IMG/VR virus record: IMGVR_UViG_3300006162_000001
Direction: 5' to 3' (one strand)
From: a virus
Length of the DNA: 57,026 bases
Shown here: piece after piece, positions 1,013 to 51,044 of the stretch
Position numbering within the stretch: the stretch's first letter is position 1
Layout: each line of letters begins with the position of its first letter
Notes under the pieces: generated by a model
What the model was told of the DNA's origin: nothing
The model's input: the letters and a program-made list of their open reading frames with translations, nothing else
Database searches by the model: none
Position numbers and translations under genes: made by a program

Positions 1013-1269
1013 AAAAGGGTTTTTCCTGGTCTTAAAGGTGGCGGCGATCCGCCACGGTATTTTGATATCAATTTACGAAGTACGTCATAAAGCTGGACAT
1101 TCCCCAGTCCGGACATATATCGGCCGTAAGCGATGAATAGTTCTGAATATTCCATGTCTTCCAGGTAGTTCTTCAGCTGTTTTTTTATTTCTGTCGCCTG
1201 GGCCATCTGGCGGATATCACCTGTCTTCTGTCTGAACTTTTCCAGTAATTCCACCACTTCGACATTCAT
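1009..1269 (-). CDS. Hypothetical protein
   Basis: 86-aa ORF, translationally coupled on both sides (4-nt overlaps). Confidence 0.6.
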   Translation of the reverse strand: MNVEVVELLEKFRQKTGDIRQMAQATEIKKQLKNYLEDMEYSELFIAYGRYMSGLGNVQLYDVLRKLISKYRGGSPPPLRPGKTLL

Positions 1270-1784
1270 AGGTTGAACCGTTTTAGGATCTGATCCCGTT
1301 CGTAGATTATTTTGGACCTGACGGCGGTGTAAATCTTAGCGTTAGGCGGTTCTCCGGGAAGCGGCATGAACTGGCGTTTCGGCATGGTGAAAGCATATTT
1401 CCCGAAAGCCATCCCCTGGCCGCCTTCATTATGGATCTTACCATAGGGGACCAGGGCCAGATCCACGCCGATCAGGACACCCTTCGGATCCGGATAATAT
1501 TTGATTGAATTGTAAAGATTCAAAGTCTGTTTAAGGATGGGACTGGCGGAATTATAGACGGTTCCTTTCACGCCGTATCGCTTATTATACCTGACATTGG
1601 TCTTTGGCGACCTGGGGGCCCAGGCTTTGACACCTGTCCCGTCATCATATCCCTGGATCCTGAAGTTATCCTTCACGATCTTAACGGCTTCGTGGCCGAT
1701 AATCCGGGGAAGTTTGGTGGTAAGGGCTTCGATTTCTGTGGAAGCCCTTCGCCAGTCCGCCAAAAGTTCTGTCATGGAATTCAT
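1266..1784 (-). CDS. Phage virion morphogenesis protein (Mu G-like / HK97 gp10-like)
   Basis: Translation ...KIVKDNFRIQGYDDGTGVKAWAPRSP...PYGKIHNEGG... resembles the virion-morphogenesis family. Context is a Mu-like head module. Confidence 0.55.
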   Translation of the reverse strand: MNSMTELLADWRRASTEIEALTTKLPRIIGHEAVKIVKDNFRIQGYDDGTGVKAWAPRSPKTNVRYNKRYGVKGTVYNSASPILKQTLNLYNSIKYYPDPKGVLIGVDLALVPYGKIHNEGGQGMAFGKYAFTMPKRQFMPLPGEPPNAKIYTAVRSKIIYERDQILKRFNL

Positions 1785-2343: not shown

Positions 2344-2738
2344 GATTTTAAAATTACACCTTTTCGATATCGGCCGGAAGAACTTTTTGTCACAACCATG
2401 GCATCAGTAATTAATCCATCCCTGGTCAGGACCACATGGACCCCATCTTTACTGAACCGTAAATAAGAGCGAAGGACCACCTTCTGGTCGTGGGGATCTT
2501 CCCATTTAGACCAGCATTCTGATGGTGAAATTACGGTTTCCGGGATTTCAGAAAACCCGCGAAGATGGGTTCTGACATTATTGAAAGATTGATTTGTGAA
2601 CCTGATATTAGTCAGAAGCTTATGGTTCTGGAAAACGATATCGTGATTTTTAGGATCCACATGGTATTTTTCACGCCATTCCGAAATCACCTGAAGGGCG
2701 TTGTGCATTCTGATATTTTCCTTATTTATTTTAGGCAT
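2340..2738 (-). CDS. Hypothetical protein
   Basis: 132-aa ORF, ATG start overlapping the GIY-YIG gene end by 8 nt. Confidence 0.55.
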   Translation of the reverse strand: MPKINKENIRMHNALQVISEWREKYHVDPKNHDIVFQNHKLLTNIRFTNQSFNNVRTHLRGFSEIPETVISPSECWSKWEDPHDQKVVLRSYLRFSKDGVHVVLTRDGLITDAMVVTKSSSGRYRKGVILKS

Positions 2739-3339
2739 AAATAAATGATGTTCTGTTTCTTTTTATGCCAGAAAGCATATTAGTTAAATACCCTCTTGAA
2801 AATCTGGTGGTTTTTGACGCCGATAAAATAGATGGATAAAATATCCCTGTTTCAATATTTAACACTGGTCTCTGACAATTCCCAGAACCGCATGGTGGTA
2901 TCCGACCCTTCTTCTTCTTACTCATTTTCTGTCTGGTCGCATCGGTGTGTTTTCGTCCGATATTAATATCCCGCATCCACTGAAGATATTCTGGGGTGTT
3001 TAATTTAATTCGGTTTTTGCATAACTTATCCCTTGTCGCTTCGCTTTTGGATTGATAAAAATCACCATTTTTGGGCAAACCAAGATTTAGACCATTGTGG
3101 CCCAAAACATCATACATGTGACCGTAAACGGATTCCACTTTGAACATTTCAGATTCGGCACACTCTGTAATGATTTCAAACTTATGATTTTCAGGCCCAT
3201 ATTTCAATAATGAAGCGTAAAGCTTAACCTGTCTTTTGCATTTTTTAAGCCGATAAACCCTAAATCTATATTCTACATTGGTAGAACTCCCCACATAAAC
3301 CTTACCGGTCGGGGATGTTATTTTATAGATATGGGCCAT
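2731..3339 (-). CDS. GIY-YIG homing endonuclease (I-TevI-like, with NUMOD-type DNA-binding repeats)
   Basis: MAHIYKITSPTGKVYVGSS..NVEYRF.. GIY-YIG core, then SEATRDKL / TDATRQKMSKKKKG repeats. The track start 3345 is TTG, and the first ATG is at 3339. Confidence 0.85.
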   Translation of the reverse strand: MAHIYKITSPTGKVYVGSSTNVEYRFRVYRLKKCKRQVKLYASLLKYGPENHKFEIITECAESEMFKVESVYGHMYDVLGHNGLNLGLPKNGDFYQSKSEATRDKLCKNRIKLNTPEYLQWMRDINIGRKHTDATRQKMSKKKKGRIPPCGSGNCQRPVLNIETGIFYPSILSASKTTRFSRGYLTNMLSGIKRNRTSFIYA

Positions 3340-3344
3340 TTTCA

Positions 3345-3375
3345 AAAATACTTTAAAAAAACTGTAAAATACTTT
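3345..3375. promoter_or_regulatory. Direct repeat AAAATACTTT x2 (21 bp apart) in a divergent intergenic region
   Basis: Copies at 3345-3354 and 3366-3375, between the minus-strand GIY-YIG start and the plus-strand island. Confidence 0.35.
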
Positions 3376-3456
3376 GAATAATGTTTTGCAGAATCAAATA
3401 AAGTTTGTACCTTAGTCCTGTCATCGGTTCTTATTCATTCACGAAAAACTTATCAC
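3376..3456 (+). promoter_or_regulatory. Conserved upstream element, copy A (probable promoter/leader of the plus-strand island)
   Basis: GAATAATGTTTTGCAGAATCAAATAAAGTTTGTAC ... AAAAACTTATCAC-ATG. Near-identical blocks recur at 4321-4384. Confidence 0.4.
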
Positions 3457-3786: not shown

Positions 3787-3796
3787 AATCATCATC

Positions 3797-4129: not shown

Positions 4130-4326
4130 AACTATCTATTCACGAAAAGCCTGGCATGATCCAGGTCCTTAACGACCGGAAATCGGTCGTCTGCGAATAT
4201 TTCTTTAACGATCCGGAATATGCCTCTAACGCCGTCATCAGGATCCAGCAAATGGTCCAGGCGTTTAACCAGCTGCCGGAAGACCAGAAGAAGAAATCGC
4301 CCTTTTTGAAGAAGAATATTGAATAA
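4126..4326 (+). CDS. Hypothetical protein
   Basis: 66-aa ORF. The ATG overlaps the upstream stop (ATGA). Confidence 0.55.
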   Translation: MKLSIHEKPGMIQVLNDRKSVVCEYFFNDPEYASNAVIRIQQMVQAFNQLPEDQKKKSPFLKKNIE

Positions 4327-4384
4327 AGTTTTGCAGTTTCAAAAAGTTTTACTATATTGCATTGTCACTAAAAACTTATCACAA
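4321..4384 (+). promoter_or_regulatory. Conserved upstream element, copy B
   Basis: GAATAAAGTTTTGCAGTTTCAAAAAGTTTTAC ... AAAAACTTATCACAA-ATG. Matches copy A at 3376-3456. Confidence 0.4.
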
Positions 4385-5170
4385 ATGAAAAGTAACTATT
4401 TCGAAAAGAAAGAAGCCCAGCTGGAAGCTTACCAAAGGTTAGCGGCGAAGAATGCCAGCGAATCAGAAAGACTTTGCAATTATTCTTCCAGCATGCTGTC
4501 CGTCATACCGATGGGCCAGCCGATCCTGGTAGGTCACCATTCAGAACGTGGCCACCGTGCCCTTCTGGCCAAAGCTGATAACGCCATGTGGAAATCTGTG
4601 GAAGCCGATAAGAAGGCGGAATATTACGCCAACAAAGCGGAAAACATCGAAAGCGGATCCGCCATCAGTTCCGATAATCCGGACGCCATCCAGCTGTTAA
4701 AAGACAAGCTGGCCGGACTGGAAAAAAATCAGGAATTAATGAAAGCCTGTAATAAGATCACCGGGAACAAAAAACTTTCGGATCCGGAAAAGGTGGAAAA
4801 ACTTATGGCGCTGGGCCTGAAGGAATCCACAGCCAATGAAATCCTGATCCCCCATTATGGAAGGGCTGGAATTCCTTCTTACAAACTGACAAATAATTCA
4901 GCCGTGATCAGGTCCACAAAAGAAAGAATCGCCCAGCTGGAAAAAATCGCTGCCGTTCCGGAATCAAGCGAAGAAATAAACGGCGTAACTTTGAAGATCG
5001 TCCCAGATGATAACCGGGTGAAGATCCTGTTCCCTGCCATCCCATCGGAAGAAATGCGGAAAAACTTGAAAATGCGGGGATTTCACTGGTCACCCACAGA
5101 AAAAGCCTGGATGCGTCAGATCTCCAATGGCGCTATATATTGGGCCAAAGAAATACTTAAAGCCGGATAA
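4385..5170 (+). CDS. DUF3560-like protein
   Basis: GQPILVGHHSERGHRALLAKADNAMWKS...EYYANKAENIES and C-terminal RGFHWSPTEKAWMRQ resemble the DUF3560 family. The track start 4319 is TTG, and the ATG at 4385 follows the conserved leader. Confidence 0.5.
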   Translation: MKSNYFEKKEAQLEAYQRLAAKNASESERLCNYSSSMLSVIPMGQPILVGHHSERGHRALLAKADNAMWKSVEADKKAEYYANKAENIESGSAISSDNPDAIQLLKDKLAGLEKNQELMKACNKITGNKKLSDPEKVEKLMALGLKESTANEILIPHYGRAGIPSYKLTNNSAVIRSTKERIAQLEKIAAVPESSEEINGVTLKIVPDDNRVKILFPAIPSEEMRKNLKMRGFHWSPTEKAWMRQISNGAIYWAKEILKAG

Positions 5171-5210
5171 AACGACTTGACGGTTTCCGTGATAAGTTCC
5201 GTCCGGATAT

Positions 5211-5238
5211 GGACCCCCTTAAAAAAGGGGTCCTTTTT
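5211..5238 (+). terminator. Intrinsic terminator
   Basis: GGACCCC (5211-5217) / GGGGTCC (5227-5233), 9-nt loop, then TTTTT. Confidence 0.75.
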
Positions 5239-5259
5239 GCACACGATAAATTTTAATAT

Positions 5260-5499
5260 ATGCCTAAGCAACACGAAATCCAGGAACTAAATCGTTATGG
5301 ACGATGGCTAAAAAAAGAAAGGGCCAGAAATAAACGGCACGCCCAAAAAAAGAAGGGTATAAAACCGAAGCCGCCGGCAAAAAAGAAGACCAAATTTCAG
5401 CCCTATGACGGGCCTAAGACGGATCCAAAACCTAAAACACCAGAACAACTTACCGCCAGGCGGATTGAACTTCTGGGAAGATCCCCCCCCATCGGATAA
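5260..5499 (+). CDS. Hypothetical Lys/Pro-rich basic protein
   Basis: 79-aa ORF with ATG start: KKERARNKRHAQKKKGIKPKPPAKKKTKF... Confidence 0.5.
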   Translation: MPKQHEIQELNRYGRWLKKERARNKRHAQKKKGIKPKPPAKKKTKFQPYDGPKTDPKPKTPEQLTARRIELLGRSPPIG

Positions 5500-5536
5500 A
5501 TGCCTATAACGCCAATCACGGTAAAAACGAACAAAT

Positions 5537-5803
5537 ATGTCAAAAAAAGAAGTCAAAACATTAACCAGGGATATTCATGATTATGGGAATGGTATAACCG
5601 GTAAAGGTCCATGGGTTGAACCTGAAAAAAAATCAATCCGTGGCGGATCCCGCGAAGGCGCTGGCCGGCCGCCAGCAAATGGTGAAACGAAGACTATATC
5701 CTTTCGGATCTCCAAAAAGCTTTATAAAAGTGTTAAGAAAAAACATCCCAGCGACCTGAACCATTTAGTGGTCACATTCTTCCAGTCCCTGGTGGGGGAA
5801 TAA
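5537..5803 (+). CDS. Hypothetical protein, possible ribbon-helix-helix DNA-binding protein
   Basis: GGSREGAGRPPANGETKTISFRISKKLYKSVKKK resembles the GRP-x-beta-strand start of RHH (CopG/Arc-type) proteins. Confidence 0.4.
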   Translation: MSKKEVKTLTRDIHDYGNGITGKGPWVEPEKKSIRGGSREGAGRPPANGETKTISFRISKKLYKSVKKKHPSDLNHLVVTFFQSLVGE

Positions 5804-5821
5804 TTTTGTAAATTTGATATT

Positions 5822-5998
5822 ATGGCAAAGACTTTACTGGAAAGGTTCCGGGAAACCCCGGACGACCTTTTCCCGGATGACGATCATCCAAACCGGCCGA
5901 ACCCGTTCACCGAAAAGGAAATGGAAGAAATCGGCAAAGCGATCGTGGAATCTCATAAGAACGATCCACCCGTACAGCCCAAAAAGAAGAAGGACTGA
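5822..5998 (+). CDS. Small acidic hypothetical protein (58 aa, below the ORF-track cutoff)
   Basis: ATG at 5822: MAKTLLERFRETPDDLFPDDDHPNRPNPFTEKEMEEIGKAIVESHKNDPPVQPKKKKD*. More protein-like than the listed overlapping frame 5814..6053. Confidence 0.5.
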   Translation: MAKTLLERFRETPDDLFPDDDHPNRPNPFTEKEMEEIGKAIVESHKNDPPVQPKKKKD

Positions 5999-6001
5999 TC
6001 C

Positions 6002-7312
6002 TTACTTCAGTAGTGCGGTATATTGTTCCAGGGTAATTTCCCCACGGTCATAGTACCCCTTCGTTATAGCCTTACACTTTTCTTCCAGGTTTTTAGGGAA
6101 TGTAATACTATTGAATTTCGCCCTGGACATAATCTGGGCTTTACCGGATCCCAGGGAATTGTCCATAATACTCACCTTCACGTTCTGAAGCTTGTCGTAT
6201 CCAGCCCGGTAAAGACTTTTGATGGTGTTGTAAGATCCTTCCGTATTCTTCAGGAAGGTGGACATGGGCACCAGACGGCCCATTTCCTTTTCATTGTGAA
6301 GCATGCGGTGAATTACGCCGTTCCAGGCGTCTTCAGGTCCCCGGTAAACATAAACCACGTCCACAGATTTACCGTCTGTTAAAAGCTGATCAATCTGCTT
6401 TTGCGCCTTTTCGTAGTTCGATAAGTTACCGTCCATTATGGCATCTGACTTCTTCCCCAGATCGGGGAATATTTTATCGATCGTGGAAGTCTTCCCAGCA
6501 CCGGATCCGCCGGCATAGAAAGAAACGTGATTATTTTCCCCTTCTTCCAGAAGTTCCTTATAAGCCCCTTTGGCCACCACGGAACTGGCTTCGTGGACAG
6601 CGGCGGCGTTCGACCCGTTATATCCCAGATCTTTGAATAATGGTCTGGCGGCGTCCGTATTGACGACATTCCCGTTTTCAGCCAGATATTCAGAAACCAG
6701 CCTGTCTTTTTCCAGAACCACCTTCAGGATGGAAGCTTCCTGAAGGGCGGCGTCAGCACCGGTCAATTCCTTATCCCTTTCGAAATTTTTGAATTCCTTC
6801 TTCTGGGCGTCAGTCATATCTTCTACTTCGTCATCAGTGATCGCCGGATGGATCTTCGGTTCCGGAAGGTCGAAGTCTTCAGCGTCCAGGGCGTTAGCGC
6901 TGGAAACTGCGTCAAAATAAGCCCCCGTGGATGGCATCATCCCGTCTTTGGCGGCGTTATATGCGAACTGTTCCCCCACGTTCGTTTCCAGGTACTTCTT
7001 AGCGTCTTCCGATGACGTGACATTCAGGTTATTTTCATCCAGGTATCTTCCGTCCACGGATTCACCGGTACAGCGGCAATTCCAGTCTATTGGCGGAAAG
7101 ATGGAATCCCCGTAATCGTCACCGATCAGGAAGACCAGCCCTTCCAGTTCAACGTGTTCCGGCCGTTCCCGGTCGTCCATCATCCCCTTATAAACCCAGT
7201 AGGGATATATATCCTTATCGGCTTGCATGTCTGTAAATTGCTGGGCGCTGACGGCCTGGCGGCGACAAGCTTCATATTCCACCCGAAGCCAGGTCTGGTT
7301 CTGCACGTCCAC
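6002..7312 (-). CDS. Head morphogenesis protein (Mu F / SPP1 gp7 family core) fused to a C-terminal zeta-toxin-like P-loop NTPase/kinase domain. This is the minimal ORF, from a GTG start
   Basis: YWVYKGMMDDRERPEHVELEGLVF...FPPIDWNCRCTG is the MuF signature. C-terminal FYAGGSGAGKTS (Walker A, 6488-6520) ...AIMDGN...GRLVP. The frame stays open upstream to 7852. Confidence 0.8.
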   Translation of the reverse strand: MDVQNQTWLRVEYEACRRQAVSAQQFTDMQADKDIYPYWVYKGMMDDRERPEHVELEGLVFLIGDDYGDSIFPPIDWNCRCTGESVDGRYLDENNLNVTSSEDAKKYLETNVGEQFAYNAAKDGMMPSTGAYFDAVSSANALDAEDFDLPEPKIHPAITDDEVEDMTDAQKKEFKNFERDKELTGADAALQEASILKVVLEKDRLVSEYLAENGNVVNTDAARPLFKDLGYNGSNAAAVHEASSVVAKGAYKELLEEGENNHVSFYAGGSGAGKTSTIDKIFPDLGKKSDAIMDGNLSNYEKAQKQIDQLLTDGKSVDVVYVYRGPEDAWNGVIHRMLHNEKEMGRLVPMSTFLKNTEGSYNTIKSLYRAGYDKLQNVKVSIMDNSLGSGKAQIMSRAKFNSITFPKNLEEKCKAITKGYYDRGEITLEQYTALLK

Positions 7313-7723
7313 ATAGGCGTTCGCGTCTTTGGAAAACTGGCTGTAAGACTTGACGTGGTTATTGTCATCGAATACTATGCTTTGAAGATCCCTGGCCTGG
7401 GCCCCGGTCTTCGCGGCGCTGAACTGGGCGGCGTTCAGTATGTACTTTTCGTAAATAGACGTGTCTTCGAAATCCTTAAAGGCGTGTTCGATCTTAGTAT
7501 TATCGATTATTTGCTGGAAAAACAGGTCGTTATACCGTTCGTAAAGGGGCGTGAAGATGACTTTGCCTTCCGGATTTTTGTAGATGAATTTCTTTTCTTC
7601 TTCCGTCAGCCCTTTGGGGATCAGTTCCTTTCGTCCGGATCCTTTCCCGGGGTCACCAGCCAGACGATCATGATTATGAACATGATGATCAGTCCCATGG
7701 GGATTTACCAGGATTTTTTTTTT
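7313..7723 (-). CDS. Start-codon-less in-frame upstream extension of the MuF ORF (137 codons down from the A10 tract), probably translated as part of the MuF protein
   Basis: My translation: KKKILVNPHGTDHHVHNHDRLAGDPGKGSGRKELIPKGLTEEEKKFIYKNPEGKVIFTPLYERYNDLFFQQIIDNTKIEHAFKDFEDTSIYEKYILNAAQFSAAKTGAQARDLQSIVFDDNNHVKSYSQFSKDANAY, continuous with VDVQNQTW. No ATG, GTG or TTG. Confidence 0.6.
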
Positions 7724-9258
7724 GCCCTGGCCATGGTCGGGATGGGCCTGGAAGATTGAACGTCCGGATCTGGATCCGGCTTTGGGGTCCCTTTGGGCGG
7801 TGCCGCCGGCGTGGGGGCGTCTTCCAGGAAGTCTTTGGATAATCCATTCGCTTCAAAGAAATCGTCCGTAAATCGCTTCCCATTGGCCACCACGACACTG
7901 GACAGGGCCGCCATTTCTTCAATGGTCAGCTGCTTTGCCCGGTTAATCTCAAAGCGCCACCCGTCAGGTAAACCCTTATACCATTTCCCGATCTTAGGCT
8001 GGAAGTCCGTGTTCATGAAGGAAACGACAAATTCCAGCTTTGACTTGACGACTTGCTGGAACATCCTTTCATGGACTTCACCCAGGGACCGGGATCCGGA
8101 TCCTGACTTCGATCCACTGGATGACAGCGTTCCCCCCAGGATCAGTTCGCGGATTTCATTCTTCTGGTCTTCATTGAATTCCGCATAAATCTTATACATG
8201 TTATTCCCCGCCTTCGTTTCCTGGAAGTCCACATCGATGGCTTTCACGATTTCACCCTTCGGATCTATCGTATAGGGGAAGACCAAAGCCTGGGAAGGGT
8301 CTATATTGGCGGCGATCGTTTCCGCCTGGGTCTTATAAAGATTTTGCTGGTTCCCGGATCCATCCACAGATCCGTCATTCTGGGGATAACCGATCGTCAT
8401 CAGGGGGAAAGCCAGACGGCGGCCGGCGGAAAGCCAGTTGTTATTCGAAAGGTTCATCTGGATAAACGACCTGGTGATGGGTTGCATCCACCCCAGGAAG
8501 CTTTCGTAAGACGTGGACGGCTGGACAAAAAGAAGGTTATCGTGTTCGGAAAAGTCGAAGCCGTCATAAAAGGAATAGGTGGAATTCTTCAGAAACCGGT
8601 TTATTGGATCGATTTCCTGCATGGGGTACTTATAAATCTTTCCTTTAACAGGATCGAAGTTAAGCCCGGAAAAACCCCAGAAGAAGGAAAAAAGGATTTC
8701 CCGGCGAAGCTGGATCTGCCAGGGCTTATTGCACATTTCTTCCGTCATTTCATCTATCCGGTTCCCATTGCGGTCCGTGATATAGAATTCCGTTTCATCG
8801 ATGGCGGTGGCAAGTTTCTGGAAAAGCATCTGCACAAAGGGGGACGATTCGAAAGCCCAGTTCACCATGGTCGCATAAGACATGGTGTATCCCATCTGGA
8901 TGGCCTGGTCACAAGCCTGTCGCCAGGTGGTAAGGTTCCAGTCCACATAATAGTTCGAAGGGAACGTCTGGCTGACGATGTTCAGACCCGTGGACTTCGG
9001 GATGATGAACGGGTTCTGGGAAGGACCGGTTCCGGTCGCTGGGACGATATGTGGCCCCGAAGGAACACCGTATCCGCCGCCATCCTGGCCCTGGCCGCCG
9101 ATATTATTCCCGTATCCGCCGGAAGGCGTGGGGGCCTGGGGGACGCTATTAAATGGGGCGCTGATATTGCCGCCCGTTATCGCCATCTTTTCAGTGGCCA
9201 GCTGTTCGCGCCTTTTCAGCACTTCTGGGTCTTTGTTTCGTCTATCTCTCCGTGACAT
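7705..9258 (-). CDS. Portal protein (Mu gp29-like, DUF935 family)
   Basis: 517 aa. ...GGTLSSSGSKSGSGSRSLGEVHERMF... and the overall layout resemble DUF935 portals. It sits immediately upstream of the MuF gene and has a Gly/Pro-rich low-complexity N-terminal region. Confidence 0.75.
   Translation of the reverse strand: MSRRDRRNKDPEVLKRREQLATEKMAITGGNISAPFNSVPQAPTPSGGYGNNIGGQGQDGGGYGVPSGPHIVPATGTGPSQNPFIIPKSTGLNIVSQTFPSNYYVDWNLTTWRQACDQAIQMGYTMSYATMVNWAFESSPFVQMLFQKLATAIDETEFYITDRNGNRIDEMTEEMCNKPWQIQLRREILFSFFWGFSGLNFDPVKGKIYKYPMQEIDPINRFLKNSTYSFYDGFDFSEHDNLLFVQPSTSYESFLGWMQPITRSFIQMNLSNNNWLSAGRRLAFPLMTIGYPQNDGSVDGSGNQQNLYKTQAETIAANIDPSQALVFPYTIDPKGEIVKAIDVDFQETKAGNNMYKIYAEFNEDQKNEIRELILGGTLSSSGSKSGSGSRSLGEVHERMFQQVVKSKLEFVVSFMNTDFQPKIGKWYKGLPDGWRFEINRAKQLTIEEMAALSSVVVANGKRFTDDFFEANGLSKDFLEDAPTPAAPPKGTPKPDPDPDVQSSRPIPTMARAKKKSW
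7714..7723 (-). promoter_or_regulatory. A10 homopolymer (T10 on plus strand): candidate -1 frameshift or transcriptional-slippage site linking the portal and MuF frames
   Basis: Portal frame reads GCA AAA AAA AAA TCC TGG TAA. The MuF frame reads GGC AAA AAA AAA ATC CTG and is -1 relative to the portal frame. Confidence 0.5.
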
Positions 9259-11987: not shown

Positions 11988-14900
11988 TTAAAAGGTATTA
12001 CTATAAAATTGGACATGCAAATTAGCCCTTTGTGCATTGGAAGCGGAAGTCATATTGATATTTCCATTACTCATGGACGCCGGTCCCGCTGACGTGGCGG
12101 CGGTATAGATACCCTGGAATAAATAAGCCCCACCCATGTTCACGCTGGTCGCACTTCCGATCGGTGCAAAGAAACCACCGGAAGCGGCTGAATTGATCGC
12201 ATTGTTACCGAAAACGGTATAGGCCGCCCCGGTATAGGTGGAAGCGCTGGAAATCACCACGCCGATATAATAGACGCCGGGCGTGATATTCACGTTCATC
12301 GGAAGTGTCAGGGCTCTCATTCCCTGGATGACGGTATTGTTCGAAGTGGATCCGGTATGTTGTACCGTGAAGGCATTAAGTGCTGATCCTGAAGATGCCA
12401 GGGACAGTGTGGATCCGTTCAGGGTATATACGCCCATCCACAAAGAAAGATTGATCGATCCCGTAGTGGCTGACGTGTTCGTCTGGGCGGACAGGGATCC
12501 GGCGATCAGGGCCGCTGTGGCGGTGACATTATAGGGGATATAGACTTGCTGAATGCTTAAAGATCCCTGGCCTATCGTATTAAGGGACACGAAGGCGTCT
12601 TCCATGCCATCCCACCGGCTTAAAGTCGCCGGGGCGGGGAAGCCCATGGAAAGGGTGGATCCGTTCTGGACCACAGAAAGTCCCCCAGTGGCGCTTATGC
12701 TGGAAGTATTGGGCGCTGAAATCTGGATGGATCCGTTAGAATAGCCACCCGTCATCGCCCCCAGGAAGTTATAAGACAGCGTTCTGGCGTCAAAAGTGGA
12801 TGAACTGTTCTGGGTGGTGTTCCCCAGGGCGTACATTCCCACGGTCTGGTTAGACTGGGCCGGGATGGATCCTGTTATCGTGGACCCGTTAAGTCCGAAA
12901 CTGACGTTGTTACTGTTCGAAAAGACGACCGTCTGAAGGTTATTCGAAGTCGTACCGGCGGAAACATTTATGGCACCACCACCACCAGGGGCGGCGACAC
13001 TCAAAGACATGCCATTACTGTAAACCGTCCCGGATATGTTTGTCCCGCCGATTGTGGCGCTGGAATTACCCATGATCCACAGCTGGGACTGGCTTCCGGA
13101 CTGCATGGCGGTCGTCAAAGCATTGGGGGCGGAAAACTGGATAGACCCGTTAGAATAACCGATTGTCAGGGATCCGATCGCATTCAGCGAAAGGACACTG
13201 TTCGCCAGGTTAGTCGAACTGTTCTGGGTGGTATTGCCCAGGGCGTAAAGACTTACACTTTGGTTTACGGATCCGGAAATCGTCTGGCCATTGATCGTAA
13301 AGGACACGCCGTTCGCATTCGTAAACCTGGCCGTACCAGTGGATATACTATTCGCCCCATCGTAAAGGACCACGCCGCCGCCACCACCAGTCTGGGATAT
13401 CTGGATGGATCCATTACTGAATCCGACCGTGATATTCCCCACCCCATTGAATGACAGATTCGAAGCATTTAAGACGGTACTGGAATTCTGGGTGGTATTG
13501 CCCAGGGCGTAAAGCGATATGTTCTGATTGGACTGGGCCGCCACAGAAGCCGAAACGGTCTGTCCGTTTATGCTGAATGACACCCCATTAGCATTCGTGA
13601 AGCGAATGGTCCCGGTTGAAATGCTGTTCGCCCCATCATAAACGGCCTGGATATTACTTTGGGTCTGGGCCGATTGTGCCGGGTAAGAGACAGTTGCCGT
13701 CACTGTTCCCCCGTTCAGGCCGAAGGATATACTGTTCGAATTACTGAAGACGAAAGCGGACAGGTTGCTGGAAGTTGTCCCCGCTGAAAGATTGATATTA
13801 CTCAAAGTCACAGCATTGGACAGCATGGCTGTCGTCAGGGCGTTCGGGGCGCTGAACTGGATCGATCCATTGGAATAGCCTATCGTCAGGGATCCGATGG
13901 CATTTAACGATACAGCGGCGGCACCGATCACAGATGAACTGTTTTGGGTCGTATTACCCAAAGCATAGAACGAAATATTTTGATTGGACTGGGTGGGGAC
14001 AGTGTAGGATCCCGTGAGCACGGAATTCCCGGAAAGTCCGAAAGCCAGTCCATTGGAATTGGCGAAGGTGAAGGCGGAAGCATTCAGCGAAGTGGTGCCA
14101 GCTGACAGGTTAATATTGGAAATCGTCACGGCGTTCGACTGCATGGCCGTAGTCAGATAATTGGTCTGGACGGTCGCTGTCACGGTGGATCCGTTAAGAC
14201 CGAAGCTGACGCCGTTAGAATTACTGAAGACGACCTGGCCCAGCGCCATCGTAGTCGTGCCGGCCGATAAGCTTCCCGCCGCCGCCCCACCTACTGAAGC
14301 GGTGACGGTGGAACCATTCAGGCCAAAAGACACCCCATTGGAATTCGAAAAGACAAAAGCGCTCAAATTATTCGAAGTGGTCCCGGCGGACAGATTTACA
14401 GCTGTCAGGGATGTGGCGATCGATCCGGTGACAGTTGACCCGTTAAGACCGAAGGACACGTTATTCGAATTACTGAAGACAATATTCGAAAGGTTCTGGC
14501 TGGTGGTACCAGCGGAAAAATTGATATTAGTCAGACTGGTGGCGATGGAAGCCGATATCGTATTCCCGTTTATGCTGAAGGATACGTTATTGGCGTTCGT
14601 AAAGCGGATCGTCCCGGTGGATATGCTATTGGCCCCGTCATAGATCGCCTGGATATTGCTTTGGGTTTGTGCTGACTGGACAGGGACAGAAACCTGGATG
14701 GATCCATTTGAGAATCCCAGGGTCGCCGCCCCCAGTCCGTTATAAGACAGGTTGCTGGCGTTCAATACGGTGCTGCTATTTTGCGTAGTGTTCCCCAGGG
14801 CGTAAAGACTGATATTCTGGTTAGACTGGGAAAAGCTGGCTGTGACAGTGGAAATATTCAGCCCGAAACTGATACTATTGGAATTACTGAATACCACCTG

Positions 14901-16594: not shown

Positions 16595-18118
16595 TCACAA
16601 AGTGACTTTCGGCAACCTACTAACCGTGGACAGCCCACCCGGGGCCAGGCGGTTGTGGCGGTTCACAAAAAGGGAATATTCATCCGGGAAAGCCTGGTAA
16701 ATGAAGTCTTTCAGCGTATCGGTTAAGTGACCGTTATGTTCATAAGACGGGCCGCCTTCATAATCCGCCTTACGGATCTTCAGGATCCCGCCATCTTTAT
16801 CGGTCTTCGCTTCCAGGTAGTCGTTAATCGACTGCTTACAGGACCGGCTGATATGGATCCTGGCGAAAGTCAATTCCTGGGTGAAGATGGCATTACAGAA
16901 TTCACCCATCGACCGGACTGGCGGGGCGTAGGGATGGATCCTGTCCACCGTCCTGAAGCCGGCCAGGATCAGCGTTTCATCGATGATCTGGAAAAAGCTT
17001 CTTTTCGCGTCATCGATATTGTTCCGGGACTTCGTGGACCGGTCGCCATACCAGAAGACGGTTCCGACATATCCGATCGACTTCAGCCAGTTGACGATCT
17101 TCCTTCCGGCCGCTGAAGCGGTATTTTCCGGATCCGAAGCGGGAAGTTCATGGATCTGGTTCACGTCCCAGATCGTCTGGTTATTTTCGAATTTCTTTTC
17201 CAGCTGCCAGCATGTTATGGCGATATGTGGATAAACATTCGAATCCATGGAAATATGGATCGTGGTGGCCGGATTATAGGGAAGGATCCGGGAAGCATGT
17301 GTCTTTTCATTGAAGCCGCGAAGGAATTCCCCGCCTGTCTTCCTTCGGGCCCACAGTCCCAGGCAATAAACCCGGTAAGAATATTCCGACACTTTGGCCA
17401 GTCCTTCGTAGTAGGCTTTCCGTTCCGGTGGACAGTATCGGTTATCGTAAAAAGTGCTGTGGGTGGCCCGGTATGTCAGTTCGGCGATCGTGCCATCGTT
17501 TAAGACTTCGGTGATCTTCCTGGTGAAATTTAGATCCTGGATGGGGTTTCCGTTTTCTTCACAGAAATAGCGCTTATAAAGCCAGAAGTCTTCGTAAGCC
17601 TGGCCGCCGGGGATATCAGGATTGAAGGAATAATCGATCTGGACTTTTTGCCGGTTAGACCGAAGGGATGTGGTGATGATCGTCCAGTCTTCTTCTTCAA
17701 TGTCGGATCCTTCTTCGATCCAGGCATCCGTGGGATCCGTCAGTGACTTGATCTTTTTGGGGTCATCCAGACCACGGCCCAGGAAGACGCCGCCAGATAT
17801 ACACCTTATTTCCAGGGGATGGGTGGTGAAGATGAAAAGCCCGGAAATCTTCCATTCTTCCACGATCGACCTAATAAGCGCCCACTGCGAATCTTTCACT
17901 GTATTCGCAACCTTCCTGATCAGGGCACATTTGAAGTGCCTGTTCGATAAACACTTCAGTATCTTCCGCTGTGCTATATCCCGGCTCTTTCCGCTGTCCC
18001 TGGACCCATAAAGAAATTCTATATCGTAAGTATGATCCAATAGGTGGCGGTAAACGGGAAGGGAAGCTTCCGGGTCGTAGTCCACCGATATTTTTTTCCG
18101 GTAAACCCTGGTTTCCAT
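16595..18118 (-). CDS. terL: Terminase large subunit
   Basis: 507 aa. Walker A FLYGSRDSGKSRD, C-terminal nuclease-like half, preceded by a small-terminase-like ORF. Confidence 0.9.
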   Translation of the reverse strand: METRVYRKKISVDYDPEASLPVYRHLLDHTYDIEFLYGSRDSGKSRDIAQRKILKCLSNRHFKCALIRKVANTVKDSQWALIRSIVEEWKISGLFIFTTHPLEIRCISGGVFLGRGLDDPKKIKSLTDPTDAWIEEGSDIEEEDWTIITTSLRSNRQKVQIDYSFNPDIPGGQAYEDFWLYKRYFCEENGNPIQDLNFTRKITEVLNDGTIAELTYRATHSTFYDNRYCPPERKAYYEGLAKVSEYSYRVYCLGLWARRKTGGEFLRGFNEKTHASRILPYNPATTIHISMDSNVYPHIAITCWQLEKKFENNQTIWDVNQIHELPASDPENTASAAGRKIVNWLKSIGYVGTVFWYGDRSTKSRNNIDDAKRSFFQIIDETLILAGFRTVDRIHPYAPPVRSMGEFCNAIFTQELTFARIHISRSCKQSINDYLEAKTDKDGGILKIRKADYEGGPSYEHNGHLTDTLKDFIYQAFPDEYSLFVNRHNRLAPGGLSTVSRLPKVTL

Positions 18119-25883: not shown

Positions 25884-26654
25884 TTATGGTTCAACTTTTT
25901 CGTTTATACACTTGTCGAAATAGACAGAAACGGCATATTTCCGCCTTAAATTCCGGGCCAGGATGTTCACCTGGTCGTCAGTCATGTTTTTGATCATCCG
26001 GTAGTGTTCCGGATCCCCGGCTGACCGGGCCCGAAGGATGTGGTAAACATGTTCCTTTATCGTCACCTGGTCGGCGTCCGTCAGGACGATCTTCTGTTCC
26101 CGGGTCAGGTATTCGAAGACTTCCACCGGGATCAGGTCTATCTTCTTCATGTTCTGGTAAACAAAAAAGGCGATCTGGACCATTTCTTGGTCCGTGATGG
26201 GTTTAGCTGGCTTCGCTGGAAGTTTTGGCTGGTTTATCCTGGCTTCCAGATTAGATACTTCCATCCGGCGTTCCAGGTAGGGGATCATAATTTTATCGAT
26301 TAATCCCAGGTTCAAATTCGTCCCGTAAGCTTCCACGCTGGACGGCTGTTCCCGAAAGACGTATTCAATTTCTTCCACTGTGGTGTTCCCGTATGATTCC
26401 ACCATTTTCTTCTGGAACTGGTCCAGAAGAAGGATTAAATCATCCCCCGAAGGAAGACGCCATCCGGTGACCACATGGATAAGCTTTAAAAGCCGTGGCC
26501 CCCATTTAGAAATTTCCTTATCGTCCATCATGCCGATCTGCTTACTGGCATATTTCCGGTTTACGATCGCCATTTCTTCAATGGTCAGACTGGGCTGCAA
26601 TAATTTTAGATAATTCGCCTGATCCGGTGATTTTAACTGAAGTTGACTGTCCAT
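25884..26654 (-). CDS. Hypothetical protein (replication-module position), start uncertain
   Basis: The track start 26723 is TTG. The ATGs at 26654 (MDSQLQL) and 26573 (MAIVNRKY) are alternatives. It overlaps the 3' end of 26578..27324. Confidence 0.5.
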   Translation of the reverse strand: MDSQLQLKSPDQANYLKLLQPSLTIEEMAIVNRKYASKQIGMMDDKEISKWGPRLLKLIHVVTGWRLPSGDDLILLLDQFQKKMVESYGNTTVEEIEYVFREQPSSVEAYGTNLNLGLIDKIMIPYLERRMEVSNLEARINQPKLPAKPAKPITDQEMVQIAFFVYQNMKKIDLIPVEVFEYLTREQKIVLTDADQVTIKEHVYHILRARSAGDPEHYRMIKNMTDDQVNILARNLRRKYAVSVYFDKCINEKVEP

Positions 26655-27324
26655 TTTTAGAAAATTTTTCTTTGTTTCGTTTCCACCTTTCCAGGCGAAG
26701 ATTCGTTTCCCATGTTTTTTCAAGCTGGAATTTCATTTTCCCAGATGGCGTCTTTTCCCGCCAATAATCAAAAAATTCGCGCAAAAGAAGTTTTTCAAAA
26801 TTGCTTTGGAAGGTGACCAGTTCATTAAAAAATTCATCTTCAGACCAAAGCTTAAAGGATTTTTTTTCTGGGAATAATTCGGCGAACGCCGCTTCCTTCC
26901 CTTCCATTCCCTTCCTTTCCCTTCCCTTCCCTTCCCTTCCTGTCGTCCTTGGTGTTTCCGAAGTGTTTCCAGGTTGTTTCCGAAGTGTTTCCTTAGAAAC
27001 ACCAGGGAATTCGCTTTTTGTATCCGCTTCGCTTCCAGTGATTCTTTGGTGTTTCTCAAAGGTTGTTATCTGAATGATTTCCACGCCATTAACTTCATAC
27101 CTGGTAATAAATTCAGATTCATGAAGTGCCCATAAAAGCTGATCCACATCCACATTATCGTAAGGAAGAACTTGAACCTTTATCCTTTTTGGACGATCTT
27201 CCAGCCGTCCGTCACGATCCGCCAATGTCCAAAGACCAATAAAAAGAAGCCGGCAAAAAGGATCTAATTCTGCTAAATCTTCATTTTTAAAAAAATCCGG
27301 CTTGATTGTTCGTATCCTGGCCAT
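26578..27324 (-). CDS. Putative DNA-binding / replication-associated protein with an internal low-complexity linker
   Basis: The N-terminal MARIRTIKPDFFKNEDLAELDPFCRLLFIGLWTLADRDGRLEDRP is a conserved-looking prophage motif. The linker GREGKGRERKGMEGKE is encoded by a pentanucleotide repeat. Confidence 0.45.
   Translation of the reverse strand: MARIRTIKPDFFKNEDLAELDPFCRLLFIGLWTLADRDGRLEDRPKRIKVQVLPYDNVDVDQLLWALHESEFITRYEVNGVEIIQITTFEKHQRITGSEADTKSEFPGVSKETLRKQPGNTSETPRTTGREGKGRERKGMEGKEAAFAELFPEKKSFKLWSEDEFFNELVTFQSNFEKLLLREFFDYWREKTPSGKMKFQLEKTWETNLRLERWKRNKEKFSKNGQSTSVKITGSGELSKIIAAQSDH
26897..26941 (-). repeat. Pentanucleotide microsatellite (TTCCC)n on plus strand = (GGGAA)n on the coding strand, about 9 units with 4 perfect (26917-26936)
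   Basis: Read directly: ttccc ttcca ttccc ttcct ttccc ttccc ttccc ttccc ttcct. Confidence 0.85.
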
Positions 27325-32808: not shown

Positions 32809-32841
32809 TCCCCCTTAAAACAACCTAACATGAAAAAAAAA

Positions 32842-33330
32842 TTACAGGGAAGCGGGTATCGTCCCGTCAGGGGAAAAGTAGATATCAGCTTCCTTCATCC
32901 GGCGGTCGTAAAGACCCTGGCTGAAGACCAGGCGGCCATCGATGTGTTCCTTATCCCACAGACAGAAGGCGGCCCTGATCGCCGGATCCGCCGGGTTTTC
33001 CTGGGCCAGCTTCAGAACAGTGCTGGTCTGGAAGTTCCCGGCCCCTATATTGTACATCAGGGACAGCAAAGCGTCATTCTGGCTTTGCGTCAGTTTTCCA
33101 TCAGGAAAGAAGGTATTTAAAAGTCTTTGATTATCCAGGGTATCGTGAAGCAAAAGATCGATGGCCCTATAATGGTCGATCGTAGGATCGGCCATCGTCA
33201 CATGAGCCCCGTTTTCGTACCTGGTGGATCCGATCCCTATCGTGGCGATCCCGGCACTGTCCAGGTAGGGATGATGAACTTCCCCTTCAAAATTGATCAT
33301 CATATCGATGTAATTCGTTCCCGGGCTCAT
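32842..33330 (-). CDS. Endolysin, glycoside hydrolase family 24 (phage lysozyme)
   Basis: MINFEGEVHHPYLDSAGIATIGIGSTRY...LTQSQNDALLSLMYNIGAGNF matches the T4/lambda-type lysozyme catalytic region (E...D...T). Confidence 0.85.
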   Translation of the reverse strand: MSPGTNYIDMMINFEGEVHHPYLDSAGIATIGIGSTRYENGAHVTMADPTIDHYRAIDLLLHDTLDNQRLLNTFFPDGKLTQSQNDALLSLMYNIGAGNFQTSTVLKLAQENPADPAIRAAFCLWDKEHIDGRLVFSQGLYDRRMKEADIYFSPDGTIPASL

Positions 33331-48269: not shown

Positions 48270-48796
48270 CAGGAATTGATTATTATAGAAAGTCCTTCAG
48301 TATTTTCATATCCGCTTATCGTCACCGGCAAATTTTTGGATCCACGGACAGTCACCGGCCGGATCCGGTGGATGACCATCTGACGGATCCCCAGCTTATT
48401 CAGGTAGGTGTTTTCCACCGTCACCACGCTGTCAGGAAGCCAGACATTATTCCAGATATTGGCCATGTCGTCCTGGGGAAAAACATAGTTCCCGGGATTA
48501 TAGATATCCTGGGTCCTTAAGACGAATTCGAATTCCAGTTCATAGGGTTTGCGAAGGATCCGTTCATAAACGACCACCCCGTCCAATATCTGGTTCATGA
48601 CGATAAGCTTTTCCCCGTTCAGGAAGATCATGGTATCCAAGGGAAGCTGGATCCCGTTTATCAGCGTCCGGGATGGATTATTGGTCTGATCTACCACGGG
48701 CGGATTATAGGGCACCTTCTGGGCGGGAAGATTCCGTCCGTTATAGGAAACATTGGGATTCGGTCCCGGGGTCGATATGTTCTTTATTACGATCAT
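48269..48796 (-). CDS. Tail/baseplate protein following the tape measure (by position)
   Basis: 175-aa ORF with 4-nt overlap with the TMP stop. Confidence 0.35.
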   Translation of the reverse strand: MIVIKNISTPGPNPNVSYNGRNLPAQKVPYNPPVVDQTNNPSRTLINGIQLPLDTMIFLNGEKLIVMNQILDGVVVYERILRKPYELEFEFVLRTQDIYNPGNYVFPQDDMANIWNNVWLPDSVVTVENTYLNKLGIRQMVIHRIRPVTVRGSKNLPVTISGYENTEGLSIIINS

Positions 48797-50460
48797 TGGC
48801 TTCCTGATTGTGAATAAGCGATATTGTTAAGGGTCCGGACCATGACTTCCACGGCGTTCTGGCCCTTTTCAGCCAGTTCCCGGCCACCATTAACGTGTTC
48901 GATATTTTGCATCTTATCAATCTTGATATTGATCACCTTCGCCTGTCCCAGCCCCCCGGCCGCCCCTGACAGCATAGAAGTATTGATCGCCGACTGGCCA
49001 GCGGCGGTGCCGGTTCCGGTTCCGGTCCCGGTGGCTTCATCTTTACCACGATTTTTTAAGACGGACTGGTAATCCCGAAGCGTCTGGATCTGGGCGTTCA
49101 TAAGCCCGAACTGCTTTATCCTGGTGTCAATATTTAATTTACTAAGGTCGCCATACTGATCCTTAACAAGCTCAATCTGCTTTTTAATGTCTTCGGCGAT
49201 ATGCTGTTGCTGTTCTTTTTTGGTGTAAGGAATAATTCCACCCTGCTTATTGAAGCCCTTTATCCCTTGCTGATAGCGGTCAGCGATGGCATAGATTTCC
49301 TTTTTAGTTTCTTCATTGGCTTCGGTGTAATACTGACCCAGGGACTTCTTCAGCTTTTCATTGGCGTTCTTAGCGTCTTCGATGTTTTCCGTCAGGTGAT
49401 GGAAAGCCCCCGCCAGGGCACCGATACCCACCACGATCAGGCCGATCGGATTGGCTTCCAGCGCCCCATCCAGAAGAAGCTGGGCGTTCTTCCAGGCTTC
49501 TGTCGCCAGGGTGATCCCTTCCACCAGAAGCTTATAGCTGGTGAAGGCGATCAGCGCCCCGCCCAGGACCCTGACGATAAACATGATCATATCCTTATTG
49601 CGTTCCAGCCATTGAAGGGCTGTCTGCACCATATTCACGACCTTTTCCACATAGGGGATCATCTTAATCTTTATCTCATTCACGATACGGCCCACCGTTT
49701 CATAAACCCCGTCCCACTGCTTTTTTGCCATTTCCAGCTTTCCTTCATCGGTAGCTGCAAAAGCGGCCGCCTGGCCACCAGTTTCCCGGGCGATCTCCCT
49801 TAAGATAATTTGCTGGGCCGCCATCAGGTGACCGGCTTTCTGAAGGTTTTTAATCTGGGTCCTTTGTTCTTCCGTGAAGCTGACCCCCGTCCGGTGAAGT
49901 CTCATCATACCCCTGATTGGATCGTCCAGGGCTATCCCCAGCGATTTGGAAGCTTCCACCATGTCGCCATGGAAGAACTTCGCGGCGTAGTCAGCTGAAG
50001 CCTGAAGGGCCTGTTTAAACTGGTCCCCTTTAATATTCCCGAAGGTCGCCAGCATTCCCTGGGCGGCGATGATGGCTGGCTTCGCCGTAGTGGTCACATG
50101 ATCCAGTTCTTCGGCCATCCCGGCCAGTTCCTTTTCGGATATCCCGGCGGCATTATTCATGGAAAGCATCGTCTGGTGAAGATCCGCCGTGGCTTTCTGA
50201 AGGCTGTTATAATGTTCCACGGACTTCATAATCAATTCGCCACCGGCAAAAATAGCCCCCAGTCCGGCGGAAGTCATGAAGAAGGATTTTATCCCGTTTA
50301 AGGATTCCCCTACCCGGGTACTCATGCGGGAAAAAGCCGATTCCACCTTTTCCGTTTCGATCTGGGCGTCAATTCCCAGCTTATCCAGGGCGGTGGTTAT
50401 TTCGGCGATCTTAGCCTTCGCGTTCCCTTCGACATTAATCCTGAATCCGTAGTTTGCCAT
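48793..50460 (-). CDS. Tail tape measure protein
   Basis: 555 aa, helical. ...MRLHRTGVSFTEEQRTQIKNLQKAGHLMAAQQIILREI... is a typical TMP core. Hydrophobic mid-section. Follows the chaperone pair. Confidence 0.85.
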   Translation of the reverse strand: MANYGFRINVEGNAKAKIAEITTALDKLGIDAQIETEKVESAFSRMSTRVGESLNGIKSFFMTSAGLGAIFAGGELIMKSVEHYNSLQKATADLHQTMLSMNNAAGISEKELAGMAEELDHVTTTAKPAIIAAQGMLATFGNIKGDQFKQALQASADYAAKFFHGDMVEASKSLGIALDDPIRGMMRLHRTGVSFTEEQRTQIKNLQKAGHLMAAQQIILREIARETGGQAAAFAATDEGKLEMAKKQWDGVYETVGRIVNEIKIKMIPYVEKVVNMVQTALQWLERNKDMIMFIVRVLGGALIAFTSYKLLVEGITLATEAWKNAQLLLDGALEANPIGLIVVGIGALAGAFHHLTENIEDAKNANEKLKKSLGQYYTEANEETKKEIYAIADRYQQGIKGFNKQGGIIPYTKKEQQQHIAEDIKKQIELVKDQYGDLSKLNIDTRIKQFGLMNAQIQTLRDYQSVLKNRGKDEATGTGTGTGTAAGQSAINTSMLSGAAGGLGQAKVINIKIDKMQNIEHVNGGRELAEKGQNAVEVMVRTLNNIAYSQSGSQ

Positions 50461-51044
50461 TTATTCTTCTTTTTGGAAAGGTGCATGCCATAACTTTAAA
50501 ACTTCCTTCAGCATGATCGTATAGTCTGAATATTCCTGAAGGGTCATCGTTTCGACTTCTTCCCGGCTTAAATTAAGAAAGGCACGGAAACAAGTTTTTT
50601 GATAAAAAACCGGATCGCGTGCCAGCAATTCTTTTTTAGCGTTGTCGGGTCTGTCGTTTATTCTTTCTTGGTCCCGGTCAAATTCAAAAAAAAAGGGCCT
50701 AATTTTTCCTTCATCAGCCACATCCCCAATTCGAAAAGCGCCCCGCTATCTTGTAACAATTCATTTTTGTTGGTCGCCGTGAACTGGTCTGTCGGGATCA
50801 GCATAAGCTTAACGAACTGACTGGTGATATCGTAAAGACGATCCGAACTTATTTCCGCTTCCCCGTCTTCAGCTGATATATTAAACAGACTGACCAGTTT
50901 AAAGTGAAGCTTGTGCTGTTCTTTGTCCCTTCTGTCCAGGTCCTTAAAAGTGGCCACCAGGGTCACTTCCTTTTCATCCCACTTGTTGGTTTCTCCATTA
51001 AATTCCAGGGACAGGAACTTAACTTCCTTTTCGAACTTCTCCAT
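50461..51044 (-). CDS. Tail assembly chaperone, -1 frameshift-extended product (GT-like). Shift within 50686-50694
   Basis: The -1 frame continues ...GPFFFEFDRDQERINDRPDNAKK... to the stop at 50461, directly abutting the TMP start. Confidence 0.6.
50658..51044 (-). CDS. Tail assembly chaperone (G-like, zero-frame product)
   Basis: 128-aa ORF between tube and TMP, ending ...LGPFFLNLTGTKKE* just after a T9 slippery run. Confidence 0.7.
   Translation of the reverse strand: MEKFEKEVKFLSLEFNGETNKWDEKEVTLVATFKDLDRRDKEQHKLHFKLVSLFNISAEDGEAEISSDRLYDITSQFVKLMLIPTDQFTATNKNELLQDSGALFELGMWLMKEKLGPFFLNLTGTKKE
50686..50694 (-). promoter_or_regulatory. Slippery sequence (T9 on the coding strand) for the chaperone -1 frameshift
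   Basis: GGC CCT TTT TTT TTG (zero frame) versus CCC TTT TTT TTT GAA (-1 frame). Confidence 0.65.

Follow-up and report, generated by a model that had tools for sequence, protein, structure and literature searches.

How does a phage make a MuF protein when the N-terminal part of the MuF reading frame has no start codon? This question is raised by IMG/VR virus record IMGVR_UViG_3300006162_000001, a stretch of 57,026 nt that was analyzed as a whole and is referred to here as the window, at the junction between its portal gene and the MuF-type open reading frame (ORF) that directly adjoins it. Based on comparisons with related phages, we consider it very likely that the portal gene has a programmed -1 recoding site at its 3' end, formed by a run of ten A, and that the phage would produce the portal protein together with a minority portal-MuF-Zeta-toxin fusion.

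By standard decoding, the portal gene (7705..9258, minus strand; frame 0) in the ORF list encodes a protein of 517 aa ending in ...ARAKKKSW, which in Pfam matches Portal_Mu (PF06074; Mu gp29-type portal) over residues 140-469 with 92.4 bits against a cut-off of 23.9. In the same list, the MuF-type ORF can be called solely from a GTG at 7310..7312, giving an ORF at 6002..7312 on the minus strand. An earlier note on this DNA had claimed that the MuF frame nevertheless stays open upstream to a TGA at 7853-7855, and that none of the 180 codons at 7313-7852 is ATG, GTG, or TTG; the translation and a codon scan bear this out. MuF codons start one base 5' of portal codons, i.e., MuF is in the -1 frame, and the two ORFs overlap on ten consecutive A (7714..7723, minus strand; T10 on the plus strand), which is the longest homopolymer of the window, with no start codon for the downstream ORF in the overlap. 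Across the junction, the portal frame reads GCA AAA AAA AAA TCC TGG TAA and holds an in-phase slippery heptamer of the X_XXY_YYZ type, GC[A AAA AAA] AAA TCC or A_AAA_AAA, followed by the portal stop codon (TAA, 7705..7707, minus strand) two codons 3' of the run. The -1 frame reads GGC AAA AAA AAA ATC CTG GTA AAT. A -1 shift on the run would lead into 573 codons (6002..7723, minus strand; frame open to 7852) that begin with KKK-ILVNPHGTDHH, continue through MuF and a Zeta toxin domain, and end in LLK before a stop codon. Joined to the portal in silico, these give a fusion of 1085 aa, the size that had been estimated, with the junction ...ARAKKK-ILVNPHG... and the junction-spanning peptide ...PTMARAKKKILVNPHGTDHH. 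The N-terminal part of the MuF moiety that lies before the GTG (7313..7713, minus strand) is without ATG, GTG, or TTG and is conserved in relatives; it contains a His-rich linker, HGTDHHVHNH (7670-7699, minus strand), and a conserved LTEEEKKFIYKNP block starting from 7609 on the same strand. Thus, the observation made in the earlier note is confirmed in every detail.

Profile searches support that the sequence upstream of the GTG is coding. With residues of the MuF moiety numbered along the 573-aa stretch that starts at the A10 run, PHROG MuF-type profiles align from residue 56 and Pfam Phage_Mu_F (PF04233; SPP1 gp7-type) aligns over residues 126-219 (7067..7348, minus strand; 49.1 bits against a cut-off of 29.6), in a gene directly 3' of the portal gene. 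The GTG encodes residue 138, 82 residues after the start of the PHROG alignment. Because these alignments begin before residue 138, the stretch upstream of the GTG is real coding sequence; the GTG, the sole mechanical start of the ORF, falls within the region of MuF homology and does not mark the true N-terminus. The possibility that the earlier note had itself raised against its reading, namely that MuF begins at VDVQNQTW at the GTG, does not hold, as the homology begins upstream in PHROG, in Pfam, and in relatives. In addition, the first half of phrog_35074 (890 positions) matches the portal and its second half matches the MuF stretch; because this profile covers both halves, fused portal-MuF proteins exist as a family.

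At the DNA level, a search of IMG/VR with a single-protein locus gave no match, and blastn of the 3.3-kb region against GenBank phages gave no match, i.e., there is no close cultured relative in that collection. Alignment-based scans of IMG/VR, by contrast, recovered a clade of 24 contigs with 39-63% protein identity to the window and a GC content of 31-50%, in which the frames at the junctions were assigned using tblastn and junction analysis. MuF is in the -1 frame in all 24 contigs and in the +1 frame in none. A junction run is present in all of them, as A10 in most, A11 in L007 and L119, and A9G in L029, and a portal-frame stop lies 1-5 codons 3' of the run in every case. In a neighbor-joining (NJ) tree of portal plus MuF segments, this A-run clade including the window is monophyletic. 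Hence, the ORF arrangement and the site are conserved among homologs (24/24), as in canonical cassettes for -1 programmed ribosomal frameshifting (PRF).

Within the clade, the early frame 0 stop is found in all 17 non-redundant relatives, with a combined chance of about 10^-14 compared with the same frame inside MuF, and the probability that all junction Lys codons are AAA has a product over 17 sequences of 10^-10.6; both combined values treat the relatives as independent and therefore overstate significance, although at 40-60% protein identity synonymous sites are saturated. Lys codons of the window are AAG and AAA in a ratio of 29:12, yet all three junction Lys codons are AAA (P = 0.025). 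Being all A despite a GC content of 31-50% among the contigs and the AAG preference of the window, the run is, as judged from these comparisons, under selection at the nucleotide level. Given the frequency of 4.7% for in-frame ATG, GTG, and TTG in the window, the 134 start-free codons after the run have a P of 0.0016; we rejected the start-free stretch as a selected trait, as the first canonical start of the -1 ORF lies anywhere from 17 to 395 nt beyond the portal stop across relatives. In three contigs (L008, L011, and L128) and in the cultured phage Peternella_1, the -1 frame is shut by a TAA that overlaps the run at its first A's, and the frame change must therefore occur inside the run. 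Together, the comparison with related phages strongly supports the proposal of the earlier note that a -1 slip on A10 would join portal to MuF.

Homologs in which portal and MuF are encoded by one ORF tell how the sequence after the run is used. A search with the 1085-aa in silico fusion identified seven proteins of 837-925 aa, all of which are single-ORF portal-MuF fusions and four of which are 40-45% identical to the query. In the alignment of the fusions, homology is continuous across the junction, and one Lys of KKK is invariant. The segments right after KKK, I[LV]xGxEY and a His-rich segment, are present in the -1 frame of the clade as well as in the in-frame fusions P0002-P0004; because these fusions share it, the post-KKK sequence is translated as a continuation of the portal. 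The DNA of two of the fusion proteins (L001 and L002) has an A11 run, AAA AAA AAA AAT, at the homologous position, so the expectation of the earlier note that 11 A would make a plain in-frame fusion is realized in nature. In L001 and L002, the -1 frame ends after 3 and 0 codons, respectively, and the same slip would therefore yield the portal alone as a short form. These two sequences are nested at separate places inside the A-run clade in the NJ tree. We also note that distant in-frame portal-MuF fusions on four IMG/VR contigs (L170-L173; 3300025771_002233 and others) have an A9 run in the linker.

The in-frame fusions P0001-P0007 and the A11 runs of L001 and L002 are also what could be expected if the A10 run of the window were a homopolymer length error and the true genome had A11 with a plain in-frame fusion, an alternative that the earlier note had listed. 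This is extremely improbable and largely refuted. Three other independent assemblies of this phage (JGI, ENA, and Logan) are identical to the window over 7.5 kb, and all have A10; the phage is present in the samples JGI 3300027898, ERZ28007521, and SRR5457675. The exact 517-aa portal, the C-terminus of which requires the A10 frame, is present on 9 contigs of JGI, ENA, and Logan assemblies, while an exact look-up in a collection of ~15 billion proteins did not find the 1085-aa fusion expected from A11. The -1 layout of the 24 related contigs with none in +1 and the conservation of the early portal-frame stop after the run argue in the same direction, and relatives with slippery heptamers at the same boundary (see below) are not explicable as homopolymer errors.

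Long A-runs are hypermutable, and both the A10 (split) and the A11 (fused) layout occur among relatives, as would fit phase variation at the DNA level, with A10/A11 toggling by replication slippage, or a MuF gene that is a frameshifted pseudogene. We nevertheless consider such DNA-level explanations highly improbable. Each phage has one run length in all assemblies, as seen for the three loci of the window and for two sets of near-identical relatives from several samples (L111-113 and L114-122), all of which have A10. Against decay, neither the window nor any of the relatives has a disrupted MuF frame, which is conserved over 573 codons, and the -1 direction is universal in the clade.

Among cultured phages, two members of the Winoviridae, Peternella_1 and fF4, have the same architecture of portal, A-run, and -1 MuF, and both are represented in GenBank by two ordinary genes with downstream GTG starts. 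Winogradskyella phage Peternella_1 (L184, MT732475, 1630-1770) has an A10 run within which its -1 frame opens; its MuF annotation in GenBank is probably truncated. Flavobacterium phage fF4 (L183, MN850656, 1634-1680) has A9, and its annotated GTG, eight codons after the run, may be a genuine start. Peternella_1 is therefore the clearer experimental system of the two.

These phages bear on whether MuF is separately initiated, either from a non-canonical codon just 3' of the run (ATC or CTG, aided by the A-rich leader), as the earlier note had suggested as an alternative, or from the GTG at 7312. Portal and MuF are separate genes in most phages, Bacteroidota favor A-rich leaders, and FPSV-S1 and lotta8-1 of the same wider family have separate portal and MuF genes with an ATG start and a 4-nt gap; the fF4 GTG aligns with those ATG starts. 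However, the codon right after the run is not conserved among relatives (ATC, ATA, AAG, ACA, AAT, and GTT), conservation of the peptide begins with the run, and the in-frame relatives have the same linker in covalent continuity with the portal. Moreover, the four relatives in which the -1 frame opens within the run have no start before the conserved motif, and the GTG at 7312 is placed inside MuF homology. In the window, separate initiation is thus very unlikely.

At the same portal-MuF boundary, six more distant relatives have MuF in the -1 frame without an A-run, i.e., the Bacteroidales prophages L093, L094, L098, and L099 and the viral contigs L174 and L062. Their in-phase slippery heptamers are A_AAT_TTC (L093, L098, and L099), A_AAT_TTT (L094), T_TTT_TTC (L174), and G_GGA_AAG (L062), the last of which is the heptamer of lambda G/GT. 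The portal and MuF ORFs of these relatives overlap by as little as 13 nt. In five of the six, a GC-rich stem-loop is located 5-6 nt 3' of the heptamer, while the helix predicted for L062 already starts within the heptamer; z-scores for folding are between -1.8 and -4.3. Among the four A_AAT_TTY prophages, a 9-bp helix is 94% paired with compensatory changes in 6 of 9 pairs, and no slid register is comparable. In addition, a CxxCGG[YF]H motif is conserved in the -1 frame ahead of any start codon. By these features, the heptamer relatives are predicted cases of textbook -1 ribosomal frameshifting, and their cassettes are independent evidence that MuF as a trans-frame extension of the portal is a selected feature of this phage group. 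In the NJ tree, the heptamer group is a separate lineage among in-frame fusions. The named hosts of the prophage relatives are all Bacteroidota, and a search of genome contigs gave distant Bacteroidota prophages only.

The residues right after the shift site resemble a metal-binding motif, which is His-rich in the A-run clade (HGTDHHVHNH and YYHTHGNHSHG); in the heptamer group and Peternella_1 (L094, L098, L099, L174, and L184), CxxCGG[YF]H or CCGH takes its place.

Several points weigh against a programmed site at the A10 run. The fF4 GTG that aligns with the ATG of separate-gene relatives suggests that MuF may also be independently initiated in some lineages. No consistent stimulatory structure was found 3' of the run within 90 nt in the window and 16 relatives (z-scores from -2.0 to +0.5); in the window, folding after the run gave z-scores of -0.16 (90 nt) and -0.67 (56 nt), and the clade has no common fold. 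The combined probabilities assume independence of relatives that are kin. Finally, the whole case is built on comparative sequence evidence, and the fusion and its level are predicted.

Which machine would slip? In the polymerase route, RNA polymerase would add one A, turning A10 into A11 in the mRNA (GCA AAA AAA AAA ATC CTG), and in the ribosome route, the ribosome would slip by -1 on A_AAA_AAA; both routes encode the same AKKKI junction. A stimulatory structure 5-9 nt downstream of the slippery site, as expected of a canonical -1 PRF cassette, is present in the heptamer relatives only and was found neither in the window nor in the clade; because of this, we do not class the window as a textbook -1 PRF cassette. 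The published criterion for purposeful transcriptional slippage, for which Thermus dnaX and insertion sequence (IS) elements are precedents, is that both the ORF organization and a run of 9 A or more are conserved (PMC1088944). In the window, the sense-strand run at the frame junction, A10, is within the length of about 9 or more that characterizes such sites, and run and overlapping-ORF organization are conserved among homologs (Baranov et al. 2005, PMC1088944). We slightly favor slippage by RNA polymerase over the ribosome for the A-run clade, given that no run falls below a length of 9-10 and that downstream structure is lacking.

That the fusion arises purely by ribosomal -1 frameshifting or sliding on A_AAA_AAA, without polymerase slippage, is possible, although not what we would expect. 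Ribosomes are known to slide on poly(A) Lys tracts, and distant relatives have non-homopolymeric heptamers with a covarying hairpin at the same boundary, which ribosomes alone could use. In several close relatives, the run ends in G to give A_AAA_AAG, sometimes with a stop right after it (L108 and L029), and this genome has a frameshift of the G/GT type, which is ribosomal where studied, on a T9 run. On the other hand, a heptamer would suffice for the ribosome, yet no run in the clade is shorter than 9, and a 3' structure is not consistent across the clade. Interconversion of split and fused layouts by A10 and A11 is, moreover, the pattern described for transcriptional slippage sites (PMC1088944).

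By whichever route, we propose that standard decoding gives the 517-aa portal, ending two codons after the run, and that in a minority of expression events a -1 move on the run would give the ~1085-aa portal-MuF-Zeta-toxin fusion. The MuF moiety, having no initiation codon of its own, would be made by the slip alone. The split (A10) and fused (A11) layouts would each give both products, at opposite ratios. The C-terminal crown of portal proteins points into the capsid interior. Proteins of the MuF/gp7 type bind the portal in low copy number and often bear toxins. Because the portal C-terminus faces the capsid interior and few copies of MuF/gp7 are found on the portal, the slippage rate would meter MuF-toxin copies. 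We infer that it sets how many of the 12 portal subunits bear covalently tethered MuF-toxin cargo, which would result in mixed dodecamers where a small number of MuF-toxin domains are tethered at the DNA exit, within the head.

The putative cargo ends in a Zeta-toxin-like P-loop kinase domain (PF06414; 6161..6511, minus strand; 55.2 bits against a cut-off of 22.3). A Walker A motif, GGSGAGKT (6488-6511, minus strand), lies within this domain, the Pfam match itself being at 6161-6454. Based on the motif and the profile match above the cut-off, the domain is a predicted kinase, and the Zeta_1 toxin in PDB 6EPH matches it with E = 2e-5. A PADLOC scan of the MuF-toxin protein gave no match. In relatives, P0001, P0007, and L007-L012 among them, the region C-terminal of the MuF domain is common to them and not alignable with the Zeta domain of the window; PBECR2/PBECR3 nuclease-type Pfam matches were obtained for the fusion proteins P0001 (PBECR2, weak) and P0007 (PBECR2, and PBECR3 weakly), reported for the protein as a whole. 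With a MuF domain at the N-terminus and a variable toxin domain at the C-terminus, as in the MuF polymorphic toxins (Jamet 2017), the C-terminus of the window MuF looks like the variable toxin end of such a toxin. Small ORFs 3' of the MuF-toxin gene are located at 5537-5998 on the plus strand; an immunity gene for the toxin was not identified, no search aimed at one having been made.

A second homopolymer of the window is also found at a -1 junction. On the minus strand, a tail assembly chaperone-type pair consists of an ORF at 50658..51044 (128 aa) and a -1 ORF at 50461..50721 (86 aa) with a 64-nt overlap around CCC TTT TTT TTT GAA, with T9 at 50686-50694. The pair sits between a tube-like gene and the tape measure gene (48793..50460), directly upstream of the latter. 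The G/GT -1 frameshift of tail assembly chaperones was reportedly described by Xu, Hendrix and Duda in 2004; judged by its sequence and position, the pair is a -1 frameshift of this type on a homopolymer and the second predicted run-based recoding site of the genome. Accordingly, two of the three window homopolymers of at least 9 are at -1 junctions of functionally linked ORFs. The third, T9 in minus-strand sense at 32833-32841, right after the stop of an ORF at 32842..33330, is apparently intergenic, with no frame junction. A second frameshift candidate, in a replication initiator (A8 on the coding strand, 26860-26867; ORFs 26578..27324 and 25884..26723), was rejected as not run-mediated, as the downstream frame opens only at 26732.

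Elsewhere in the window, the head module is split between MuF and a Mu-G-like virion morphogenesis gene (Phage_tail_S, 1266..1784) by an island at 2731-5998, which contains a GIY-YIG/NUMOD3 homing-endonuclease-like ORF (2731..3345) and plus-strand genes including one with DUF3560 (4319..5170). In the fetched gene tables of several relatives, a gene with weak or faint Phage_tail_S matches directly follows portal-MuF. Between the terminase gene (16595..18118) and the portal gene, a 1395-aa ORF (11988-16175, minus strand) has no Pfam or PHROG match. An 848-aa ORF (53833-56379, minus strand; mechanical TTG start) has weak matches to major head and head-protease PHROGs, and the head module seems to continue across the ends of the window. 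Other assemblies of this phage, at 57,057 and 57,214 bp, point to a complete genome of about 57 kb that is circularly permuted.

Taken together, these analyses lead us to propose, as a probable interpretation, that tailed phages of Bacteroidota have, in portal-to-MuF recoding, a conserved type of programmed frameshift that was previously unrecognized and whose logic is like that of G/GT. It would use two interchangeable signals, a heptamer with a hairpin or a bare A10 run, and evolution would have switched repeatedly between a split layout, in which the slip makes the fusion, and a fused layout, in which the slip makes the short form. Its function would be to meter a tethered, ejectable MuF-toxin cargo, here a Zeta-type kinase, and in the A-run clade RNA polymerase may do the metering. 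In-frame portal-MuF fusions, programmed frameshifting, and transcriptional slippage are known already; what is new is the gene context and the module architecture. We did not find portal-to-MuF recoding described in keyword literature searches, in GeneTack 2013, PRFect 2024, or Jamet 2017, or in the portion of the Atkins 2016 recoding review that was covered, and the words "frameshift" and "zeta" are absent from the MuF toxin paper (PMC5576092).

A practical consequence concerns annotation: by starting MuF at a false internal GTG, gene callers truncate the protein and leave a spurious gap, as also in the GenBank record of Peternella_1 and possibly that of fF4. Descriptions of the core head module are therefore wrong for a whole group of Bacteroidota phages. 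If the interpretation is correct, a ratio of portal to portal-MuF set by recoding would be a direct and testable answer to how the copy number of MuF/gp7 is set, and would allow effector domains to be positioned at the DNA-exit vertex in a defined number.

The proposed site would stand beside G/GT as a new conserved phage frameshift class. In the G/GT genes of lambda and most tailed phages (PMC5009743), ORFs of a structural module likewise overlap with the downstream one in -1 and without its own start, the upstream ORF has a slippery site close to its end, the short and the long product have a common N-terminal part and are made at a fixed ratio, and the arrangement is kept across very divergent phages with differing slippery sequences. 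Unlike in G/GT, the genes in the window encode proteins of the head, portal and MuF, and not of the tail, a toxin domain is included in the extension of about 570 aa, and the long product is expected in the virion, from which G and GT are absent.

Coupling of the same head proteins, with MuF at the portal C-terminus, is also known from the in-frame portal-MuF fusion genes of Microbacterium phages in clusters EA3/EA5/EA8 and EB (PMC7302621), from phrog_35074, and, non-covalently, from SPP1 gp6-gp7 (cited in PMC5576092). In those cases, every portal subunit has MuF or the proteins are separate, whereas here coupling is predicted to be conditional on recoding and to give mixed rings. The MuF polymorphic toxins of temperate phages (Jamet et al. 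2017, PMC5576092) share the N-terminal MuF domain, the variable toxin end, and the location right after the portal gene, but are stand-alone genes with their own start.

Among slippage sites outside of phage head genes, the OrfA-OrfB fusion of IS elements, made by -1 PRF or slippage on an A-run (PMC1088944), resembles the portal-MuF pair in that a conserved run of A8-A10 underlies the -1 ORF pair, homologs of the same organization agree in run length, and no stimulatory structure is needed; the genes and their role are unrelated, and the run is conserved here over a deeper divergence (39-63% protein identity). The closest parallel in the use of two signals is dnaX, in which tau and gamma are made by -1 PRF on A_AAA_AAG with a stem-loop in Escherichia coli and by transcriptional slippage on A9 in Thermus thermophilus (PMC1088944, PMC5009743). 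Similarly, lineages of the portal-MuF family have either a heptamer with a hairpin or a bare run of 9 A or more, and in the A11 relatives L001 and L002 the slip would give an at-once truncated product, as for gamma. The window differs from dnaX in that the short product is the default and the slip would give the long one, in that the gene is a phage structural rather than a replication gene, and in that recoding is predicted from sequence. If so, portal-MuF would offer, as dnaX does, a naturally occurring case of one problem solved both by a heptamer with a hairpin and by a bare A-run.

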